Origin: Verrucomicrobiia bacterium | GTDB lineage: Bacteria > Verrucomicrobiota > Verrucomicrobiia > Limisphaerales > UBA1319 | Direction of reading: 5' to 3' | Assembly (NCBI GenBank): GCA_963664225.1 | Contig: OY760937.1 | Coordinates: 1,952,001 to 2,016,000, forward strand | Length of the DNA: 64,000 nucleotides | Shown here: positions 3,052 through 22,593 of the stretch, piece by piece | How the letters are laid out: each line of letters opens with the position of its first letter | Position numbering within the stretch: position 1 is the stretch's first letter | The notes under the pieces: generated by a model | The model's database searches: none | Seen by the model: only the letters and a program-made list of their open reading frames with translations | What the model was told of the DNA's origin: nothing | Program-made: the position numbers and the translations under genes

Positions 3052-4653
3052 TCAGAACTGGAAGTAAATGAATGCGCCGCCGCCCGAGGAACAGACGCAG
3101 AGATAGAGCAACATACACGCCGCCAGGCTCACACGGACCAGCCCGATCGCCAGAACCTCCCTGACTTTCGATTCATACAAAAACTGGTAGAGCCAGATCA
3201 GGGCAATCAGCAGGAGCATCAGCGCCGGAATCTGCGGATCCTGCCATGCGGCGGTGAAGATGCGCCGGACGATCAGCATGGCGTCGCCCATCGAGTCCGC
3301 GCGGAAGAAAATCCAGGTAAAGGTCACGAAAAGAAACACGCCGAATTGCTTCAGGAGCTTGGGCACCCGTTCGCGATAGAATTCCGCCCGCTCGAGTTCG
3401 CGTGTGATCAGAACCCCCAGGCCATGCAGAATGCCCCAGATCATGAAGGTCCAATTGGCCCCGTGCCAGATGCCGGAAATAAAGAAGGTGATGAAGAGAT
3501 TGCGGTACGTGAGGAGAGTTCCGCCCCGGTTTCCCCCCAGGGGGATATAGACGTAATCGCGGAACCAGCTTGAAAGGCTGATGTGCCAGCGCGACCAGAA
3601 ATCGCCCAGTCCTGTCGCGAGGTAGGGATTGTTGAAATTGAGAATCAGATTAAAGCCCATCAATTTGGCGACGCCCCGGGCCATGTCGGTGTAACCGCTG
3701 AAATCGAAGAAAATCTGCCAGCCGAACGCCACGGTGGCGAGGAACAGCGCCGGTGCGCCAAAAGCACTTGGGTTGTCATAGACCCGCTCGACATAGAAGG
3801 CCAGGTAGTTGGCCAGTGCCAGCTTCTTGAACAGCCCCACGAGAAACAGGGAGGCGCCGTCCGTGAAATTTTGCATTCGCACCGGCGGGAATTGATTGAA
3901 CTGGGGCAACAGATTCCGCGCGCGCTCGATGGGACCCGCCATCAACTGCGGGAAGAAGCAAACAAAGGTGGCGAAGCGGAGGAGATTGCGCTCGCGATGC
4001 ACCTTGCCGAAATAGAAATCGATGGTGTAACTCAGCGATTGGAAGGTGAAGAAGGAGATTCCAACCGGGAGCAGGTATTGAAAACCCAAGGGCATGAGGG
4101 TCGAAGGATCGGCCAGTTTGAGCGGCAGATGCACCCACGAAAAAGCCACATTCAGGTTTTCGACAAAGAACCGGGCGTATTTGAAAAAGATAAGCAGTGC
4201 CAGGTTGTTCACGAGGCTGATCAGCAGCCAGATTTTGCGACTGCTGTAGAGGGCACCCAGCGCCATGAGCAGGACAAGCACACTGAAGCCCGCCATCGTG
4301 GGCCGTAACGTCTTTGGCCCGACCACCGCGAGGGCAAGAATCCCCAGCGCGGCCAATGCGGAACCCAGGAACGCGATCTTCAGGACCCGGTCGTCAAAGC
4401 GCAGGCGCGTGAGCCGCCCCATGACATTCACCGGTTTTCCTTCCACCGGGCAGTGGTCCATCAGCGCCACCAACCCGAAATCCAGCAGGGTGGAATAAAT
4501 GACCAGCAGCAGGTAATAGGGATTCCACCAGCCGTAAAAGAAGTAGGACGCCAGGGTGAGCCACGGCAGCCAGAGCTTTGTCTTTCGCAGGGCGAAAAAC
4601 ATCGGCAGAACGACCAGCAGGAAGATCAGGAACGGCCAGGTATGAAAGAGCAT
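3052..4653 (-). CDS. MBOAT family O-acyltransferase (AlgI/DltB-like)
   Basis: LPVGISFFTFQSLSY, GPIER, DFSGYTDMA, FWSRWHISLSSWFRDYVYIPLGG, GIWHGANW motifs. Confidence 0.93.
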   Translation of the reverse strand: MLFHTWPFLIFLLVVLPMFFALRKTKLWLPWLTLASYFFYGWWNPYYLLLVIYSTLLDFGLVALMDHCPVEGKPVNVMGRLTRLRFDDRVLKIAFLGSALAALGILALAVVGPKTLRPTMAGFSVLVLLMALGALYSSRKIWLLISLVNNLALLIFFKYARFFVENLNVAFSWVHLPLKLADPSTLMPLGFQYLLPVGISFFTFQSLSYTIDFYFGKVHRERNLLRFATFVCFFPQLMAGPIERARNLLPQFNQFPPVRMQNFTDGASLFLVGLFKKLALANYLAFYVERVYDNPSAFGAPALFLATVAFGWQIFFDFSGYTDMARGVAKLMGFNLILNFNNPYLATGLGDFWSRWHISLSSWFRDYVYIPLGGNRGGTLLTYRNLFITFFISGIWHGANWTFMIWGILHGLGVLITRELERAEFYRERVPKLLKQFGVFLFVTFTWIFFRADSMGDAMLIVRRIFTAAWQDPQIPALMLLLIALIWLYQFLYESKVREVLAIGLVRVSLAACMLLYLCVCSSGGGAFIYFQF

Positions 4654-5087
4654 TGAGCCGGAGATGATTGGGTGTGATTGCCGGAACTATTTCGAGGCCC
4701 TCAATTGTTGAAGCTCCTCCGGGGTGACGCGTTTGACATCCTTGCCGCGTTGCTCCCGGTTTGGCGGAGCCGTTACCCGACCTTCGCCGATGTGGGTGAC
4801 GAACGCCAAAAGCGTCGTCCATTTGAATGTCTCCGCTTGCATTGGTTTTGGGCCAATCTACACACGTGGGCGGCCAAATCCAGTTTAATGTCAGGCCATC
4901 GGCGGGACGGGGAAAAACCACAAAGATGGAACGGGGAATGAGAATTTAACCGCAAAGAAATCAAAGATCTCAAAGAGGGAAAAGGGATTTGGAGTTAAGT
5001 ATTTGTCATTGAAACAATTTCCGCCCGAGCCGGGTTGGGGCGTTCCATGAGCGCCAATGCCGTGCTGCCCTGTTTGATGAAAACGAC
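4546..5087. repeat. Duplicated block, copy 1 (MBOAT 5' end, mini-ORF and upstream region)
   Basis: Near-identical to 8489-9030 (offset 3943); weaker similarity continues to ~5140/9090. Confidence 0.95.
4687..4842 (-). pseudogene. 51-aa chimeric mini-ORF, collapsed remnant of the TolB-like and FGE genes
   Basis: MQAETFKWTTLLAFVTHIGEGRVTAPPNREQRGKDVKRVTPEELQQLRASK*; pieces match 14703-14656, ~14320-14332, ~13534-13556, 12727-12749 and 12559-12603 in order. Confidence 0.85.
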
Positions 5088-5134
5088 CGCCGCGATGGGC
5101 GATATCGCCAAGGAAAAGTGGACAATACGGACCC

Positions 5135-5626
5135 CTAACTGCTTGCCCGTGAAACATAATCAACAGCATCTCTCAGCGTCCTCATCTTCTCTGCCGCTGC
5201 GTCTGGAATACTGATACCAAACTCTTTCTCGACATCCAAAATAAAATCGACAGTGGACATGGAATCTAAAGCGTCCATACGAATGTCCTCAACAATTCGA
5301 TCATCAGGGTGGAGGCCCGACAAATCCACTGAAATGTGCCGCGACATGATACTGCGGAGCTTCGATGCAACCGCAGCCTGCTCTGGTGGAAAAAACTCAC
5401 GCCCAAACTCTGCATCGGAGAGCGGCTGTCTGTCGGCCATGTAGCGCAGGGCACGCTGTTTCTCGGACTCGTCGCCCAATCGCACTTGGTATATCCTGAT
5501 GGCGATAGCGCTCAGGACGAGAGCAATCTGCGCATACCACGGAACCGGAAGCAGACGCGGCGCTATCAGCGCAATAATGAATGCTCCCGAAGAAAGCACG
5601 ACGAGTATGAACAGAATCGGACGCAT
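5135..5626 (-). CDS. Cassette gene: two TM helices plus C-terminal acyl-carrier-protein-like domain
   Basis: DIRMDALDSMSTVDFILDVEKEFGISIPDAAAEKMRTLRDAVDYV resembles the ACP phosphopantetheine-site region; ATG 4 nt after the GTTAGGC core. Confidence 0.75.
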   Translation of the reverse strand: MRPILFILVVLSSGAFIIALIAPRLLPVPWYAQIALVLSAIAIRIYQVRLGDESEKQRALRYMADRQPLSDAEFGREFFPPEQAAVASKLRSIMSRHISVDLSGLHPDDRIVEDIRMDALDSMSTVDFILDVEKEFGISIPDAAAEKMRTLRDAVDYVSRASS

Positions 5627-5630
5627 GGTG

Positions 5631-5740
5631 GCCTAACTTTGATTAAGCGACCAGCGGTCCGTATCTTGGACCGGTGAGAAAGCATTCTTAATTCGTCGCA
5701 TGTACGGGATTTAGACCCTTTTCCACTGATGGTCAACATC
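5631..5740 (-). repeat. 110-bp attI-like site, copy 1 (core GTTAGGC)
   Basis: Minus strand ends ...CGCTTAATCAAA-GTTAGGC; three more copies at 7116, 7843, 10078. Confidence 0.75.
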
Positions 5741-5801
5741 AAGGAGTTCGAGTGATGCCTTCATGGTTGTATGGCTGTTTCGTTCTGCATTGCTACATCC
5801 C

Positions 5802-5894
5802 ATCGACCGACGCGGTTCAGTGGTGGCGGAGCAAAAATGCCCAATATAAAACGGACGGCGAACCCCTCCGTCCACTGCAACCATCTTGTTCACC
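5802..5894 (-). mobile_element. Degenerate attC-like site
   Basis: GGTGAAC...GGTTGCAGTGG...CCACTGAACC...GGTCGAT, 93 bp, just after the stop of 5904-6320. Confidence 0.6.
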
Positions 5895-5903
5895 CGACGC
5901 TTT

Positions 5904-6320
5904 CTAGACATTCCTCACGCCAATCATGGCTCGCAACTTGCCCAAGTCGGGCGAGTCTGTTGAGACCTCAAATAAATCCTCGGTGACACCTGTTGTCGTG
6001 TCTGCAATACCCACGACAAAACTCCTGCCGCACTCCCGGTTTAGGGTGCCGAGAAATCCGGCGATCGCCTCAACATCGGCAAACCATCCCTCCGACTCAG
6101 CGCCTAGTTCCGGCAACTCCAGATTGAGGCCGAAGTCCCAAAGCGGCAAATCTCCGGGGCGCGTGCATGTGTCCTGGCCGTGGCGCTGATTAACGACCCA
6201 CGCATGACCGGCGATCCAATGTCGGCTGCGAACGAAGCGCGAGAATCGTGGCGTCAACGATTCGGCGACATCTCCGATGTCCGCTCCGTCCACGTAAGCA
6301 TAAAGTGTGTGTTGTGACAT
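5904..6320 (-). CDS. Cassette gene, hypothetical protein
   Basis: 138-aa ORF bounded by attC-like sites on both sides. Confidence 0.75.
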   Translation of the reverse strand: MSQHTLYAYVDGADIGDVAESLTPRFSRFVRSRHWIAGHAWVVNQRHGQDTCTRPGDLPLWDFGLNLELPELGAESEGWFADVEAIAGFLGTLNRECGRSFVVGIADTTTGVTEDLFEVSTDSPDLGKLRAMIGVRNV

Positions 6321-6334
6321 GACGCGCTTAAACT

Positions 6335-6427
6335 AGCGAACGATTCAGCTCAACGACGCCGGGCCAATTGTTTCCGATTGGCAATCGAAGCGCGATCCCG
6401 GCCTTGCCTGGAGCTGGATGGTTCGAC
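6335..6427 (-). mobile_element. attC site
   Basis: R'' GTCGAAC, L'' CAGCTC, inner stem GCCGGG/CCCGGC, L' GAGCTG, R' GTTCGCT; 93 bp. Confidence 0.8.
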
Positions 6428-6430
6428 CTC

Positions 6431-6745
6431 TTACTTGAGTATCTCATGGATGCTCTCTCGATACGCGTCTCGCCTGTTGGCAAGCCACACTTCATAAATA
6501 TCGTGGCTGTGCTCGTCTGCACCTCGCAGAACGCGAGCGAGGGCGTTCGTATTGCCGCTCTCGGAAAGGGACCGAAGCTCATGCACAAAATCGGCGTATG
6601 GTTGCCCCACGCCGTCGTTGCAGATGCCGTGATAGTTGTGAATCGTGCGAGCTTCCGTCATGAAAGAGACAAAATTCCACTCAGCAATCATCGCCAACAT
6701 AATGACGACACCTAGAATGACAATTGTGCGTGCCTTAATAAACAT
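6431..6745 (-). CDS. Cassette gene, hypothetical membrane-anchored protein
   Basis: 104 aa, N-terminal hydrophobic helix, fills the space between two attC sites. Confidence 0.7.
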   Translation of the reverse strand: MFIKARTIVILGVVIMLAMIAEWNFVSFMTEARTIHNYHGICNDGVGQPYADFVHELRSLSESGNTNALARVLRGADEHSHDIYEVWLANRRDAYRESIHEILK

Positions 6746-6759
6746 GGCGCGTTTGAGTG

Positions 6760-6852
6760 GTGGAACAATCAGGATTAGTGACTCCGCGCCAGTGACGTTC
6801 GAGTTGAAACCGTGATGCTCTCGCGGGATTCACTGCATCCAGCTTGTTCGGT
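6760..6852 (-). mobile_element. attC site
   Basis: R'' ACCGAAC, GGATGCAGTGA ... TCACTAATCC, R' GTTCCAC; 93 bp. Confidence 0.72.
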
Positions 6853-6859
6853 TGGGTTG

Positions 6860-7105
6860 TCATCGCCGAAAAGTAAATCGGTCAGCAGTCTCGTCCACAT
6901 CCATCGCCCGACCACGAAGGCTGGTAACCACCAACCAAACACCTCCGATGCACATGGCGGGCAGCAATGTGAACTTCGCGAATCTGCTGCTGGCGCTGTC
7001 GCTCGCAAGATAGAAAAGAGTGACGGCGACCGCAGCGAAAAAAAGTCCAAGAAGCAGCATCACCGCCCGCTTCCGTGTTGTCGCCTTCTGTGGTTGTGAT
7101 GTCAT
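6860..7105 (-). CDS. Cassette gene, small two-TM protein
   Basis: 81 aa, two hydrophobic segments; between attI-like copy 2 and an attC. Confidence 0.65.
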   Translation of the reverse strand: MTSQPQKATTRKRAVMLLLGLFFAAVAVTLFYLASDSASSRFAKFTLLPAMCIGGVWLVVTSLRGRAMDVDETADRFTFRR

Positions 7106-7115
7106 ACGCGTTTAC

Positions 7116-7225
7116 GCCCACCTTTGATTAGGCGACGAGCGGTTCGTATTTTGGACCGGTAAGAAAGTATTCTTAATTCGTCGCATGTACGGGATTTAAA
7201 CCCTTTTCCACTGATGGTCAACATC
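7116..7225 (-). repeat. 110-bp attI-like site, copy 2 (core GGTGGGC)
   Basis: Aligns with 5631-5740. Confidence 0.75.
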
Positions 7226-7300
7226 AGACTCCCAAGCGGCAAGGTGAATGGGAAAGAAGTATGTCAAGCGGGTTTGGAGGATAAAAAGGCGGAATGGTGC

Positions 7301-7379
7301 GGGAGCGCGCCCCCCGGCGTCCGATTGGAACTGCTGGCCGACCGCGGTCCTCGTCATTGGCTCAATCCTCTGGTTCGGT
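7301..7379 (-). mobile_element. Truncated attC-like site (left arm only)
   Basis: ACCGAAC-CAGAGGATTGAGCCAATGACGAGG... overlaps the 3' end of 7354-7839; matching right arm absent. Confidence 0.45.
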
Positions 7380-7839
7380 TGGTGTAATATGCAGCAATGC
7401 TCTCGGCATTCTGAATGGCCTCAACATCCGCATCCAATTCCAACAACCTCTGTGCAAGCCATTCGGCCCAGACTCCAACGGCTTGGTGCGCTTTTACCCC
7501 AAGAGCTTCCAGGTTCCACCATATTTTGCCATTTTCCCGGGGCCTGAGATACCCACCCAAATAAATCCACGTTACGTCATCGTCACAATGCTCCATCATG
7601 TATACCATAATCACCGGAAGATAATAACCAACCCCTTGAGGCTTCATGTATGAAAATTCTTCAGTGTAAAGATGACCCCACCCACCTCGCGCCGCCACCT
7701 GTTCTCGAGTTAAGCCAAGATAGTTTTTGAGCACCTCTTCACCATCTATTCCGCCAGCGTCCAAGTCTCCTTCGTGCTGTGGCATCTGGAATCCGCGAAA
7801 CGCATCCTCAATCATCGTCTGGATATGCGTCTGATTCAT
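7354..7839 (-). CDS. Cassette gene, hypothetical protein (possibly DUF6714-like)
   Basis: 161 aa; FSYMKPQGVGYYLP segment; ATG 3 nt after the attI-like core. Confidence 0.7.
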   Translation of the reverse strand: MNQTHIQTMIEDAFRGFQMPQHEGDLDAGGIDGEEVLKNYLGLTREQVAARGGWGHLYTEEFSYMKPQGVGYYLPVIMVYMMEHCDDDVTWIYLGGYLRPRENGKIWWNLEALGVKAHQAVGVWAEWLAQRLLELDADVEAIQNAESIAAYYTNRTRGLSQ

Positions 7840-7842
7840 ACT

Positions 7843-7952
7843 GCCGAGCTTTGATTATGCGACGAGCGGTCCGGATTTTGGACCGGATAGAATCCATTTT
7901 TAATTCGTCGCATGTACTGGATTTAGACCCTTTTCCACTGCTGGTCAACATC
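7843..7952 (-). repeat. 110-bp attI-like site, copy 3 (core GCTCGGC)
   Basis: Aligns with the other copies; internal inverted repeat ATGCGACGA...TCGTCGCAT. Confidence 0.75.
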
Positions 7953-8495
7953 GGAGGTTCTGCCCAGCCCGCTGACTGGCCGGTTTGGGAGCGTGGGAAA
8001 TGGCTGGGGGCTGAGGGCTGAGGGCTGAGGGCTGAGGGCTGAGGGCTGAGGGCTGAGGGCTGAGGGTTCGGGCCACCTCTCCAGGAGGAGGAACAGCGTT
8101 TGCGCGGCACTTGAAGGTTTGGACGGCGCGAATGATACCGCCGCGTGGGGTTGGCAGTGGCAGATAAATACATGGCTGGGCCGGATGGGATGGGATTTGA
8201 TTCAACGCCTACAGCGTTGGGATTTCTCTGGGGACGGAGACCCCGGGTAGCCCTCGGCGGGCAACCCGGGTCTGAATGATTTAATCCCTTCGGGATAATG
8301 AGGTGCCACCCGGGGTAGCATTTCCACGGCAACCCGAGTGTGAATGATTGCAGCCCGTTCCGGGTTGGCCGGAGGATGGGCGGCAAGGTGCAGTGCAGGG
8401 GGGATTTTGAGTTTCGAAGGGTTGCGCGAGTTCAAATGCCTCTGCGATACGGTGGCCGAACCGGCTGAAGCCGGGACTCCATACCGAGGGACGCC
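7953..8495. repeat. REP-mosaic leader upstream of the attI-like site
   Basis: Homologous to 10185-10700 and partly to the 817-bp units. Confidence 0.85.
8009..8064 (+). repeat. Heptamer tandem repeat (GGCTGAG)x8
   Basis: 8 perfect copies; the homologous position near 10229 has 2. Confidence 0.95.
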
Positions 8496-9030
8496 AGGGT
8501 GAGCCACGGCAGCCAGAGCTTTGTCTTTCGCAGCGCGAAAAACATCGGCAGAACGACCAGCAGGAAGATCAGGAACGGCCAGGTATTAAAGAGCATTGAG
8601 CCGGAAATGATTGGGGGTGATTGCCGGAGCTATTTCGAGGCCCTCAATTGTTGAAGCTCCTCCGGGGTGACGCGTTTGACATCCTTGCCGCGTTGCTCCC
8701 GGTTTGGCGGAGCCGTTACCCGACCTTCGCCGATGTGGGTGACGAACGCCAAAAGCGTCGTCCATTTGAATGTCTCCGCTTGCATTGGTTTTGGGCCAAT
8801 CTACACACGTGGGCGGCCAAATCCAGTTTAATGTCAGGCCATCGGCGGGACGGGGAAAAACCACAAAGATGGAACGGGGAATGAGAATTTAACCGCAAAG
8901 AAATCAAAGATCTCAAAGAGGGAAAAGGGATTTGGAGTTAAGTATTTGTCATTGAAACAATTTCCGCCCGAGCCGGGTTGGGGCGTTCCATGAGCGCCAA
9001 TACCGCGCTGCCCTGTTTGATGAAAACGAC
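8489..9030. repeat. Duplicated block, copy 2 (with truncated MBOAT 5' fragment)
   Basis: Near-identical to 4546-5087; encodes MLFNTWPFLIFLLVVLPMFFALRKTKLWLPWLTLAS then runs into REP sequence. Confidence 0.95.
8630..8785 (-). pseudogene. Second copy of the 51-aa chimeric mini-ORF
   Basis: Same sequence as 4687-4842. Confidence 0.85.
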
Positions 9031-9100
9031 TGCGGGAATGGGAAAAAGCGTCAGGGAAAAGGGGATAATACTATGGTTTGGACCCTAACTGCCCCTAACT

Positions 9101-9535
9101 CTAACTTTTAAGTCGCTTGGACTCTCTCTTGCCGTGTTGCTTCGGGTCAGCAAGCACCCGAGCCGTCTTCCAGAATCGGAACTCTCGATAGACTGTCTCG
9201 CACTTCATATCTTTATTGGGAAAGCGGAGCTTTATGTACAACAGGTGTGGCTCGATGAGGGCTTCGACCTTATTCGTCGGAGAACTTATCCACTCCCAGC
9301 CACGGTCCGTGTGGACGTAGCTGCCTGCATCGAAAGGAGGCGGGTCCACTTCAAGCCAGTAGAGTATTCGGCCTCCGGCAAACTGTACAAAATTGTGCGA
9401 AACTGCTCCCACGTCGGCGAATTCCTGAGGCACTTGATAAATTCCCGTGACTGGTCCAGCCGCGAACCATGCGCCGACGAACGCAATCCCGAACGCACAC
9501 ATGCTGCCAACTAGTATCTTATAGCGCTGCTTCAT
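9101..9535 (-). CDS. Cassette-like gene, hypothetical exported or membrane protein
   Basis: 144 aa, N-terminal hydrophobic helix; stop lies in a GTTAG motif. Confidence 0.7.
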   Translation of the reverse strand: MKQRYKILVGSMCAFGIAFVGAWFAAGPVTGIYQVPQEFADVGAVSHNFVQFAGGRILYWLEVDPPPFDAGSYVHTDRGWEWISSPTNKVEALIEPHLLYIKLRFPNKDMKCETVYREFRFWKTARVLADPKQHGKRESKRLKS

Positions 9536-9583
9536 AAGAATATGGTGGTCGGCGGCCTTGACGTCCGCGATGAGGGGCGGCGG

Positions 9584-9648
9584 GCCGGTGGCATTCGGAT
9601 TGCAACTGAGACGTCATCGTGGGATTCGCTGCAGCCTGATTGCTAAGT
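9584..9648 (-). mobile_element. Degenerate, truncated attC-like site
   Basis: ACTTAGC-AATCAGGCTGCAGCGAATCCC...CAGTTGCAATCCGAA resembles the left arms of the attCs at 6335 and 6760. Confidence 0.45.
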
Positions 9649-10077
9649 GCCTTCTTCATTGTGGTGAACCGGAATCGTCACTACCTCGAATTCTTGTCCG
9701 TCTTTGCTGAAGGTGAAGATCCAGCCGGTCTGCTTGAAATCCTGCACCTCACAGGTCACGGAGTAAATCAGATCATCCGAGCCTGCCTTGAGGCTCATTC
9801 GTGCTTTTGTCGCGGCCTGTTCGAGTTTCTTCCGCTCTTTGGGTGTGAGGAGGCCAATGCCTTCGTCTTCAAGGCATGCCTCGTCGTGTGCAACACCACT
9901 GCCTAACGACGGATCAAATGGATGTCTGTTCGTGACGAAAATATGAGGACGCTCCAAGCCCCAATTCTCGTATTCCTCTTTCGACTCAGCGACCACCTGC
10001 ACGTAGCCGACGCACTGACCCTCATTCCACCAGACCAGATCGCCAAGTCGAATCGTTGAGCCATCGGGGTATCTCAT
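9643..10077 (-). CDS. Cassette gene, hypothetical protein
   Basis: 144 aa, MRYPDGSTIRLGDLVWW...; directly follows attI-like copy 4. Confidence 0.75.
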   Translation of the reverse strand: MRYPDGSTIRLGDLVWWNEGQCVGYVQVVAESKEEYENWGLERPHIFVTNRHPFDPSLGSGVAHDEACLEDEGIGLLTPKERKKLEQAATKARMSLKAGSDDLIYSVTCEVQDFKQTGWIFTFSKDGQEFEVVTIPVHHNEEGT

Positions 10078-10184
10078 GCCCTCTGATAATGCGACGAGCG
10101 GTCCGGATTTTGGACCGGATAGAATCCATTTTTAATTCGTCGCATGTACTGGATTTAGACCCTTTTCCACTGATGGTCAACATC
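10078..10184 (-). repeat. attI-like site, copy 4 (core shortened by 3 bp)
   Basis: Ends CGCATTATCAGAGGGC instead of ...ATCAAAGTTRGGC. Confidence 0.7.
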
Positions 10185-10389
10185 AGAGGTTCGGCCCGCT
10201 GGCTTACCGGTGCGGCAGCGTGGGAAATGGCTGAGGGCTGAGGGAGAAAGCACGGAGGAGGTTGAGGGTTCAGACCACCTCTCCAGGAGGAGGAACAGCG
10301 TTTGCGCGGCACTTGAAGATTTGGACGGCGCGAATGATATCGCCGCGTGGGGTTGGCATTGGCAGATATATACATGGCTGGGCAGGATG

Positions 10390-12558
10390 GGGATGCGGAA
10401 TTTGATTCAACGCCTACAGAGTTGGGATTTCCTGGGGGACGGGGACCCCGGGTAGCCCTCGGCGGGCAACCTGGGGCTGAATGATTTAATCCCTTCGGGA
10501 TAATGAGGTGACACCCGGGGTAGCATTTCCATGGCAACCCGAGTGTGAATGATTGCAGCCCGTTCCGGGTTGGCCGGAGGATGGGCGGCAAGGGGGAATG
10601 CAGGAGGGATTTTGAGTTTCGAAGGGTTGCGCGAGTTCAAATGCATCTGCGATACGGTGACCGAACCGGCTGAAGCCGGGACTCCATACCGAGGGACGCC
10701 GGGTCGGGGGACACGGCCTACAAGTTGATGCGGCGGATAATATGATGATCTGACTGGCTGAAGCAGGGTGCAGACCTGATCATTTAAGCACGATTGAGGA
10801 GGATCAACGATTGCAGATTGGAAATCTGCGATACAGCAGACAGGATGTCTGCGCTACGGCTGGAAGGCTGCGAATGCTACAAGCCGCTCGATTTCATAGC
10901 GGTCCACGCAGGCTGAAGCCGGGACTCCATACCGAGGGACGCCAGGGTGAGCCGGAAGGGTGGAAACCGCTAATCCTCGGTAATTGACGCTAATAAAATG
11001 GAATTTAAGGTTCGCGCGAAGTAGTGAATAAGACAAAAAGTCAGGACGGGATGGGTTTTAACCGATGAGCAGCGATACCCGCCAACTGGTTTATCGGAGG
11101 CGTTAAGCCGACTAAAAGTCGGCGCTCCGCCGTGGGTGTTTCAACCGTCGTCACGCTATGGGCCTTTGCGTGTGGCGGAAACGAAAGGGGGAATGGACGG
11201 GATTGGGGGATGCGGAATTTGATTCAACGCCTACAGCGTTGGGATTTCTCTGGGGGGGGCGAGCACCCCGGGTAGCCCTCGGCGGGCAACCCGGGGCTGA
11301 ATGATTTAATCCCTTCGAGATAATGAGGTGCCACCCGGGGTAGCATTTCCACGGCAACGTGGGCTGAATGATTGCAGTGCGTTCCGCATAGCCCGGAGGA
11401 TGGGCGGCAAGGTGCAGTGCAGGGGGGATTTTGAGTTTCGAAGGGTTGCGCGAGTTCAAATGCCTCTGCGATACGGTGACCGAACCGGCTGAAGCCGGGA
11501 CTCCATACCGAGGGACGCCGGGTCGGGGGACACGACCTACAAGTTGATGCGGCGGATAATATGATGATCTGACTGGCTGAAGCAGGGTGCAGACCTGATC
11601 ATTTAAGCACGATTGAGGAGGATCAACGATTGCAGATTGGAAATCTGCGATACAGCAGACAGGATGTCTGCGCTACGGCTGGAAGGCTGCGAATGCTACA
11701 AGCCGCTCGATTTCATAGCGGTCCACGCAGGCTGGAGCCGGGACTCAATACCGAGGGACGCCAGGGTGAGCCGGAAGGGTGGAAACCGCTAATCCTCGGT
11801 AATTGACGCTAATAAAATGGAATTTAAGGTTCGCGCGAAGTAGTGAATAAGACAAAAAGTCAGGACGGGATGGGTTTTAACCGATGAGCAGCGATACCCG
11901 CCAACTGGTTTATCGGAGGCGTTAAGCCGACTAAAAGTCGGCGCTCCGCCATGGGTGTTTCAACCGTCGTCACGCTACGGGCCATTGCGTGTGGAGGAAA
12001 CGAAAGGGGGAATGGACGGGATTGGGGGATGGGATTTGATTCAACGCCTACAGCGTTGGGATTTCCTAGGGGACGGGGACCCCGGGTGGCTCGTGCCTCG
12101 CGACCCGGGGCTGAATGATTTAATCCCTTCGGGATAATGAGGTGCCACCCGGGGTAGCATTTCCACGGCAACCCGGGTGTGAATGATTGCAGCCCGTTCC
12201 GGGTTGGCCGGAGGATGGGCGGCAAGGGGGAATGCAGGAGGGATTTTGAGTTTCGAAGGGTTGCGCGAGTTCAAATGCATCTGCGATACGGTGACCGAAC
12301 CGGCTGAAGCCGGGACTCCATACCGAGGGACGCCGGGTCGGGGGACACGGCCTACAAGTTGATGCGGCGGATAATATGATGATCTGACTGGCTGAAGCAG
12401 GGTGCAGACCTGATCATTTAAGCACGATTGAGGAGGATCAACGATTGCAGATTGGAAATCTGCGATACAGCAGACAGGATGTCTGCGCTACGGCTGGAAG
12501 GCTGCGAATGCTACAAGCCGCTCGATTTCATAGCGGTCCACGCAGGCTGAAGCCGGGA
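10390..12558. repeat. Tandem array of a ~817-bp non-coding REP-mosaic unit (~2.7 copies)
   Basis: GATTCAACGCCTACAG at 10404, 11221, 12038; units contain several palindromic REP-like motifs. Confidence 0.92.
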
Positions 12559-13491
<933 letters not shown>

Positions 13492-13545
13492 TTTACGACT
13501 GAATGCTTGGAGGTTGGGAAATGGCACAGGTTTGTTGTCCCCGGT

Positions 13546-20577: not shown

Positions 20578-20948
20578 GCCCTTGGGCCGATTCGGATGGT
20601 GCTGCAATGCCGGATGCGAATTTGATTCAACGCCTACAGCGTTGGAAATTCTCTGGGGGATGCGCGTACCCCGGGTGGCTCGTTCCTCGCGACCCGGGGC
20701 TGAATGATTGCAATCCCTACAGGATTGCGCGGACGGAACGATTGCGGAATGCGGGTGAGGTTGATTGAGGGGCGTCCCGTTCCGGTCTGGCAGATGTGGT
20801 GGCCGCAGGCGGCCGTTGGCGTCCTTGTCCACATCCAACTCCAGCATGTCCTCGGGCCGATTTGGATGGTGCTGTAATGCCGGATGCGAATTTGATTCAA
20901 CGCCTACAGCGTTGGAAATTCTCTGGGGGATGCGCGTACCCCGGGTGG
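20578..20948. repeat. ~98-bp direct repeat of the same REP-like family as the 817-bp units
   Basis: 20581-20678 and 20851-20948 (offset 270), both with GATTCAACGCCTACAGCGTTGG. Confidence 0.85.
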
Positions 20949-22516: not shown

Positions 22517-22593
22517 TGGCGGGAGTGGCGGGGCTCGAACCCGTAACCTTTGCCGTGACAGGGCAACGCTCTAACCAATTGAGCTACACCCCC
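22517..22593 (-). tRNA. tRNA-Asp (GTC)
   Basis: GGGGGTGTAGCTCAATTGGTTAGAGCGTTGCCCT-GTC-ACGGCAAAGGTTACGGGTTCGAGCCCCGCCACTCCCGCCA; cloverleaf with CCA end. Confidence 0.97.

Follow-up and report, generated by a model that had tools for sequence, protein, structure and literature searches.

Probable attI-type heads, present in many copies, on integrase-less cassette arrays of a verrucomicrobial genome

The repeated element and the genes behind it

The subject here is a repeat element of about 115 nucleotides (nt) that occurs four times in a 64,000-nt stretch of the genome of a Verrucomicrobiia bacterium (contig OY760937.1, positions 1,952,001 to 2,016,000; this whole stretch is called the window) and that may be the recombination site, attI, at the head of integron-type gene cassette arrays. 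The first-pass annotation of this DNA had pointed to four co-oriented copies, and they are real: a repeat search finds them 82 to 96% alike and all on the minus strand, which is the strand of the genes and the functional orientation of the element. The copies, referred to as heads, stand in front of small genes, some of which are followed by attC, the hairpin sites that bound cassettes. In the direction of transcription, a flank labelled U is followed by head 4, gene 7, a decayed spacer, gene 6, and the second copy of a region labelled D. Then come another U flank, head 3, gene 5, and a spacer; head 2, gene 4, an attC, gene 3, an attC, gene 2, an attC, and about 47 nt; and finally head 1, gene 1, the first D copy, and a gene of the MBOAT family. 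In the list below, which runs in the same direction, R2 is a covariance model for attC described further on, E is the expect value, aa stands for amino acids, and ORF stands for open reading frame.

10081 to 10193, minus strand: head copy 4, 96% identical to copy 3, with the second U flank (10198 to 10703) before it and genes 7 and 6 behind it
9643 to 10077, minus strand: gene 7, 144 aa
9536 to 9642, minus strand: decayed attC in the spacer between genes 7 and 6, recognisable in its 5' half alone, with no R2 match
9101 to 9535, minus strand: gene 6, 144 aa, no Pfam family, with D copy 2 behind it
7849 to 7961, minus strand: head copy 3, with a U flank (7966 to 8498) before it and gene 5 behind it
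7354 to 7839, minus strand: gene 5, 161 aa, a weak, sub-threshold DUF6714 match, no attC behind it
7122 to 7234, minus strand: head copy 2, the sole window copy with intact cassettes behind it (genes 4, 3, and 2, each with an attC)
6860 to 7105, minus strand: gene 4, cassette ORF, 81 aa, membrane-like
6759 to 6853, minus strand: attC after gene 4, with R'' ..GAAC, L boxes, and R' GTTCC (R2 31.2 bits, E 9.5e-6)
6431 to 6745, minus strand: gene 3, cassette ORF, 104 aa, no Pfam family
6334 to 6428, minus strand: attC after gene 3 (R2 27.4 bits, E 8.9e-5)
5904 to 6320, minus strand: gene 2, cassette ORF, 138 aa, no Pfam family
5801 to 5895, minus strand: weaker attC after gene 2 (R2 17.3 bits, E 0.036), about 47 nt from head copy 1
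5637 to 5749, minus strand: head copy 1, read as a type-1 attI-plus-promoter module, ending ...GTCGCTTAATCAAAG, then TTAGGCC; the ATG of gene 1 is 10 nt past the G
5731 to 5736 and 5708 to 5713, minus strand: promoter-like hexamers of head copy 1, TTGACC and TAAATC
5135 to 5626, minus strand: gene 1, 163 aa; membrane-like N-terminus, PP-binding (carrier protein) domain, no attC behind it

The stop codon of gene 1 falls within GTTAGGGG, where the D region begins. Gene 7 has a homologue in the related genome G128 that is a bona fide cassette, with an attC on either side and an intact integron integrase (IntI) 1.7 kb away, and the 5' attC half at 9536 to 9642 resembles the attC behind that homologue in the complete integron of G128.

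What is constant in the element, and where does the constancy end? The genome, a single contig of 5.78 Mb, holds 11 full copies and 1 truncated copy. The full copies align without gaps over 121 columns at a mean column identity of 86%, and the blocks TTGACC, TAAA (17 nt beyond it), ATGCGACGA, and CCGGTCCAA are the same in all 11; the element also carries GTCGCATAAT, with ACGRACC repeats upstream of it. The 3' end reads ...GTCGCATAATCAAAG, and conservation breaks off in every copy at column 113, the G of ...ATCAAAG. TT follows directly in 7 of the 11, and beyond it the sequences are unrelated. This is the boundary expected of an attI site, with the platform on one side, the first cassette on the other, and a putative G/TT crossover. 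The GTTRRRY-like core that had been read after each copy holds for copy 1 (GTTAGGC) only; copies 2 to 4 have GGTGGGC, GCTCGGC, and GGGC followed by ATG. Likewise, the start codon, first placed within 0 to 10 nt, actually lies 3 to 16 nt past the G in the window and 3 to 30 nt past it across all 11 genome copies. The ORFs behind the 11 copies are mutually unrelated, except for one duplicated pair (1736 and 1756 kb). Head copy 2 and the genome copy at 222 kb have an additional upstream flank of about 70 nt in common.

Are the genes behind the heads cassettes? An attC is an imperfect R''/L''/L'/R' hairpin of 57 to 141 nt. R2, a home-made model for such sites, was trained on 10 of them, all outside the window: 9 from other arrays of this genome and 1 from the array by the broken intI of G001, a genome of the same genus. 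RNAalifold returned no structure for the attC alignment, and the structure was then drawn by hand. Its R/L-box pairs form in 77.5% of cells across the training sites, versus 22 to 44% for slid versions of the structure; compensatory change is seen in 11 of 21 pairs, and values as high as these were reached in 0 of 500 shuffles. Beside the intact IntI of G128, R2 detects six sites, all in one orientation, and it also picks up sites in the arrays of G001 and G017. In this genome it gives 30 matches at E <= 1, in about 16 places, and 6 of the 11 type-1 heads (the full copies) have a same-strand site downstream within about 1.6 kb. A simple scan for AAC...GTT hairpins missed both clear attC sites, returned noise, and was dropped.

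Searched on both strands with filters off, the window gives its two best R2 matches in the spacers after genes 4 and 3, and all three spacer sites are on the gene strand. The site after gene 4 is the best match in the 64 kb and folds as a single long hairpin (z -2.4); sequences related to the site after gene 3 lie at 4119.4 and 1753.0 kb of the genome; and the site after gene 2 ties for third place in the window with one match elsewhere of the same score. The covariance-model check thus bears out the 93-bp attC-like hairpins that had been described between the genes, but only for the run behind copy 2: the spacer at 9536 to 9642 has the 5' half alone, and neither folding nor R2 found an attC in the spacer at 7239 to 7353. 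R2 found nothing attC-like behind genes 1, 5, or 6 in the window. Since intact attC sites follow genes 4, 3, and 2 alone, only copy 2 in the window stands at the head of an intact array, of three cassettes; the arrays of the other copies are decayed or atypical. Behind copies 1, 3, and 4, the attC sites of the genes are either lost or were never present, and the window arrays look partly decayed.

One alternative is that the element belongs to the cassettes, as a promoter that moves with the gene behind it, the true junction being upstream. Copy 1 sits some 47 nt after an attC, like the 5' end of a cassette, copies 1 and 2 are within a run of genes, and cassettes with their own promoters are known, by the account in PMC4889954. 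However, no attC was found upstream of copies 2, 3, and 4, so the idea fits head 1 only. Moreover, the homology of the copies ends at the G before each gene while the genes differ, and in relatives the 3' core of the element directly adjoins intI remnants, as described below. A cassette-borne promoter is accordingly quite improbable. If the element is instead an attI-type head, the sequence after the last attC behind head 2, which runs into head 1, fits three cassettes inserted at head 2 with head 1 already downstream.

The core and the promoter-like block

Not all heads in this genome are of the same type. Three type-2 heads (1679.7, 4119.7, and 4881.7 kb) have the last 25 to 47 nt of the element in common with type 1 and a different 5' part, and two type-3 heads (2224.7 and 4933.3 kb) resemble the attI region by the broken intI of G001, bringing the intact heads to at least 16 (11 of type 1, 3 of type 2, and 2 of type 3). 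Because type-2 heads join the same core to a different 5' part, the conserved function should reside in the core or junction, the 5' part being exchangeable. Upstream of the remaining attC clusters, a relaxed search for the core gave no match; two clusters have type-3 heads instead. Further attC clusters in the genome lie at 4933.3 to 4937.4 kb (6 R2 matches), 2224.7 to 2227.0 kb (3), and 5221.2 to 5221.7 kb (2).

Is the core found elsewhere in the order? A 25-nt pattern, AACC-N4-GTCGYATAATCAAAGTT, allowed up to 2 mismatches, was run against 400 other genomes of the order with the reversed pattern as a control. It gave 38 matches in 22 genomes, the control 2, and the matches extend to a shared consensus of about 35 nt; nine genomes hold 2 to 6 copies. 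Of the matches, 28 loci were followed up, IntI being searched within a 1.5-kb flank. At 5 of the 28, a divergent ORF that starts 5 to 55 nt from the core is the N-terminal part of an integron integrase; the NCBIfam matches of one such fragment, in G144, are integron-integrase families only. attC matches are present at 15 of the 28 loci; there are 21 in all, every one of them downstream of the core and in its orientation. In G132, two heads have a 131-nt block in common that ends at the G of the G/TT junction. At about 115 nt, the element is close in length to the stretch from the intI start to the attI crossover in G001, about 100 to 117 nt. GCATAAT lies at the same distance from GTT in the attI regions by the intact IntI of G039 and G017, two loci picked by eye from 15 IntI loci with at least 230 nt upstream. 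Run over 76 kb of IntI loci, a model of the element itself matched once, weakly, within the attI region of G039 (7.4 bits); at an E of 8.3, this match is not evidence on its own. Aligning the element with three attI regions in MAFFT gave no convincing result. Taken together, a core family spread through the order, intI remnants beside it, and attC arrays behind it argue that the 3' third of the element is, judged from its sequence, an attI-type site of a family common in the order.

The 5' part of the element contains a promoter-like block, TTGACC-17-TAAAT(C), of which TTGACC and TAAA are the parts invariant in the 11 copies. Could the element be simply a dispersed promoter and 5' leader, whose 3' end happens to be a good secondary integrase target resembling the sites called attG, with cassettes ending up behind a promoter that was already there? 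The ATG close behind 11 of 11 copies and the invariant -35-like and TAAA blocks are what such a repeat would show, the genome has many other intergenic repeat families, and the insertion of cassettes at genomic GWT sites near resident promoters has been reported (in 10.1101/2022.09.11.507474, as far as its account goes). Against this, the 3' 35 nt or so are the core family present in 22 of 400 other genomes, with some cores by intI remnants, and the type-2 heads keep that core with a different 5' part, which places the function in the core rather than in the promoter half. A promoter repeat of this kind is unlikely.

The leader might alternatively act as RNA, a riboswitch or a target of small RNAs that co-regulates the small genes without any recombination. 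Two inverted repeats, ATGCGACGA/TCGTCGCAT and CGGTCC/GGACCG, follow just after the putative transcript start, and two copies of the element folded as single-stranded DNA have z-scores of -1.4 and -2.5. Rfam gives no match to the element, however, either at gathering level or at E 5; RNAalifold shows compensatory change in 0 of 17 predicted pairs, with variation one-sided; and the downstream genes have no common function. A structured RNA leader is thus highly improbable.

Cassette arrays without an integrase

Where, then, is the integrase? The first pass had seen no tyrosine recombinase in the window and no integrase nearby, and both observations hold: the genome has 13 tyrosine-recombinase matches, all of them outside the window, and no integron integrase was found in the whole genome either. 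IntI is set apart from other tyrosine recombinases by an extra domain. With the TIGR02249 cut-off at 265 bits, the best six-frame translation reaches 82 and the best whole protein 130, and a tblastn search with 7 IntI proteins of relatives met Xer-like genes only. The best recombinases of the genome are XerD-like and XerC-like, with a few other Xer-like genes elsewhere. No complete integron, with intI next to the array, was found in this genome, and the expectation that some copy of the element might abut intI did not come true for any of the 11 full copies or the truncated one. Of 201 genomes of the order, 68 have an IntI above the cut-off. It is likewise missing from three relatives that have 6, 4, and 3 heads, and in two relatives of the window's own family IntI is on contigs other than those of the heads. 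An integrase could conceivably lie on an unassembled replicon. Since there are at least 16 heads, about 30 attC sites, and no intI, recombination at the heads either needs an integrase from elsewhere or has stopped.

Two observations on recombinase genes stand apart. At 2794.4 to 2797.7 kb of the genome, three consecutive tyrosine recombinase genes (357, 328, and 431 aa) have the layout of a recombinase trio. In G144, all three heads (loci L113 and L133 on contigs C9 and C3, and C5:34091-34500) adjoin an N-terminal intI stub of about 113 residues, two of the three stubs being 84% identical. The truncated integrase gene seems to have been copied there together with attI, and since a stub stands beside each head, the copied unit in that genome seems to be larger than the site.

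Could host recombinases use the heads instead? All the tyrosine recombinases of the genome are XerC/XerD-like or otherwise Xer-like, and the core has the layout of an arm, a 6-nt spacer, and a variable arm, in which the arm CGCATAA may resemble a XerC-binding arm. The heads might on this account be dif-like sites for XerC/XerD, as in Xer-dependent integrative elements. Yet the partner sites are canonical folded attC, of the type that lies next to IntI in relatives, the core is flanked by remnants of intI and not of xer, and a simple search for dif-like sites in the genome gave nothing usable. Xer-type heads are highly improbable.

Several results weigh against integrase-less cassette arrays with attI-type heads. 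(i) Concerning the integrase, no intI, intact or remnant, adjoins any of the 11 type-1 copies, and no intact IntI was found in the flanks of the 28 core loci. (ii) Concerning the window, the genes after three of the four copies have no intact attC, and three of the four junctions lack TT. (iii) Concerning relatives, the full type-1 element was found in 0 of 40 genomes by BLAST and in 0 of 9 family genomes with a covariance model, and it had no match in two exact-pattern scans of genome contigs and one of metagenome contigs. (iv) Concerning searches with parts of the element, the 3' 75 nt gave a best E of 0.13 against 21 IntI loci in nhmmer, which is not significant, and matches to a 17-mer at up to 2 mismatches were not clearly above the reversed control, the columns of that count not being totalled. 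(v) A consensus promoter scan did not call TTGACC-17-TAAATC because the second hexamer, a weak -10, fails its rule. (vi) The structure in R2 was hand-drawn from two sequences of the training set, and its sites are mostly this genome's own. A 17-mer match in G155 was set aside; it lies inside the intI coding region and is probably due to chance.

Even so, it is likely that the repeat of about 115 nt is the head of integrase-less integron-type cassette arrays, that is, of clusters of attC sites lacking an integron integrase (CALINs; Cury et al. 2016, PMC4889954; IntegronFinder 2.0, PMC9024848), in which an attI-plus-promoter head has been kept and multiplied. The 3' part of about 35 nt (...CCAAGATACGGACCGCTGGTCGCATAATCAAAG, then TT) would be the integration site, where an incoming cassette would be joined through its folded attC, between G and TT, by an integron integrase, while the 5' part of about 70 nt, with TTGACC-17-TAAAT(C), would probably provide an outward promoter, like the cassette promoter Pc, for the first cassettes. 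Genes 4, 3, and 2 may have been captured at copy 2 in the past. The present role of the heads is most likely that of promoters and leaders.

How does this compare with known systems? The window has three R2 sites that bound a cassette array, co-oriented and within 1.1 kb, in a genome without IntI, which fits the definition of a CALIN by at least two clustered attC with no nearby integrase. Like a CALIN, the arrays have at least two co-oriented attC that follow small ORFs, most of them unknown, and intI was found neither within 10 kb nor elsewhere in the genome. Unlike the CALINs described, whose heads are undescribed, they keep a recognisable attI-type head with a promoter-like block, and this head is multi-copy (a single genome has 16 intact ones, of three types) and appears again within a run of genes. 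In the published account, half of CALINs are likewise in genomes without IntI (PMC4889954). The textbook integron has one attI, next to intI (as set out in PMC9024848). The arrays resemble such a complete sedentary chromosomal integron, with intI, one attI, and Pc, in having a core at the first-cassette junction where conservation ends at G, then TT, an outward promoter-like block, and a module of about 115 nt close to the intI-to-crossover spacer of G001; they differ in having no intI and a site that is repeated, both in tandem and dispersed. attG sites, which 10.1101/2022.09.11.507474 presents as loosely defined GWT sites with no conserved context, similarly place cassettes away from an integron platform for expression from a nearby promoter. 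The heads differ from them by a conserved core of about 35 nt that is found across genomes and next to intI remnants.

Duplication of the heads and its meaning

The inserted block and its host genes are as follows.

12559 to 13527, minus strand: FGE-sulfatase-type gene, the upstream host neighbour of the inserted block
8489 to 9071, minus strand: D copy 2, 97% identical to copy 1
4546 to 5134, minus strand: D copy 1
3052 to 4653, minus strand: MBOAT gene, the downstream host neighbour of the inserted block of about 7.9 kb

In the relative G008, PD40, FGE-sulfatase, MBOAT, and 398-aa genes are contiguous, with 43 nt between the FGE and MBOAT genes. Here the same gap is occupied by about 7.9 kb (window 4654 to 12558) of heads, small genes, repeats, and host-gene fragments. 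The D region is a mosaic that includes one stretch resembling the start of the PD40 gene, another resembling the end of the FGE-sulfatase gene, and codons 1 to 36 of MBOAT. Heads 3 and 4, with U flanks 88 to 92% identical and D regions 97% identical, are a tandem duplication, and the duplicated unit ends in the first 36 MBOAT codons. Elsewhere in the genome, the copies at 1736 and 1756 kb have the same cassettes, and a U-type upstream flank accompanies 7 of the 11 copies. Part of the head multiplicity is therefore plain tandem or segmental duplication. The two duplicated units of the window carry different genes, so gene content has changed at or behind the head after duplication.

Side by side with these, the insert contains a number of repeats. 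The host-gene fragments are the first 36 MBOAT codons at 8489 to 8596, the FGE end at 4680 to 4731 and 8623 to 8674, and the PD40 gene start at 4787 to 4870 and 8730 to 8813. Window positions 10379 to 12560 are a tandem repeat of a non-coding unit of about 815 nt (312 nt of U plus 497 nt termed T), in about 2.7 copies with 95 to 96% identity, with related copies at 3669.6 to 3672.0 kb of the genome. A hairpin-rich interspersed repeat of about 110 nt, with no Rfam match, is present in the window at 8190 to 8305, 10397 to 10510, 11215 to 11330, 12029 to 12144, and 20609 to 20725; it has well over 80 BLAST matches in the genome, often in regular arrays (six copies 614 nt apart at 619 to 622 kb) and often just upstream of heads. 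Runs of the heptamer GGCTGAG lie directly upstream of heads 3 and 4 (8002 to 8073 and 10215 to 10244), with similar ones before other U-type heads. Each D region contains a member of a repeat family of about 120 nt (5003 to 5120 and 8946 to 9060) that begins at GTTAGGG behind genes 1 and 6 and has at least 7 relatives elsewhere in the genome. The sole Rfam match in the window is a tRNA gene (22520 to 22593, minus strand). On a larger scale, the cumulative GC skew, taken in 10-kb bins, climbs monotonically along the whole contig and never turns, which is unusual for a bacterial chromosome.

Does the head move as well as multiply? A bolder version of the scheme, which goes back to the portable attI-plus-Pc module of the first-pass annotation, makes the head a self-multiplying unit, with or without an intI stub, that spreads within arrays and to new chromosomal places, each copy founding or re-activating a short array with an integrase supplied in trans by a plasmid, a phage, or a transient element. 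An attI-type 3' third, its many copies, and attC downstream of 6 of 11 of them stand from that proposal; the word "portable" is weakened by the part that duplication has in the multiplicity. A self-multiplying head is possible but doubtful. In the likelier case of heads that were simply kept on the arrays, they would have multiplied mainly by tandem or segmental duplication.

What would such heads contribute? CALINs, and the fact that many are in genomes without IntI, are already known (PMC4889954); what appears to be new is a recognisable, multi-copy attI-type head with a promoter-like block, kept on CALIN arrays. No published description of solo attI heads in many copies turned up in a limited literature search, a weak negative. 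By their published accounts, CALINs are described by their attC sites alone, with their origin an open question (PMC4889954; 10.1101/2022.09.11.507474), and IntegronFinder does not detect attI outside class 1 (PMC9024848). Here, the heads of integrase-less arrays are recognisable, multi-copy, and often carry only an intI stub. The core of about 35 nt is a sequence handle for tracing where CALINs come from. The repeated heads, with their promoter-like block, are suggested to keep short arrays expressed, and they are concrete substrates for asking whether a trans-acting integrase serves more than one docking site. Should the arrays be mere fossils of duplicated integron platforms, they represent a tidy but ordinary case of integron decay. 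If, on the other hand, the bolder version holds, many heads without a resident integrase would be a regular integron lifestyle in this verrucomicrobial order and would account for the origin of many CALINs.

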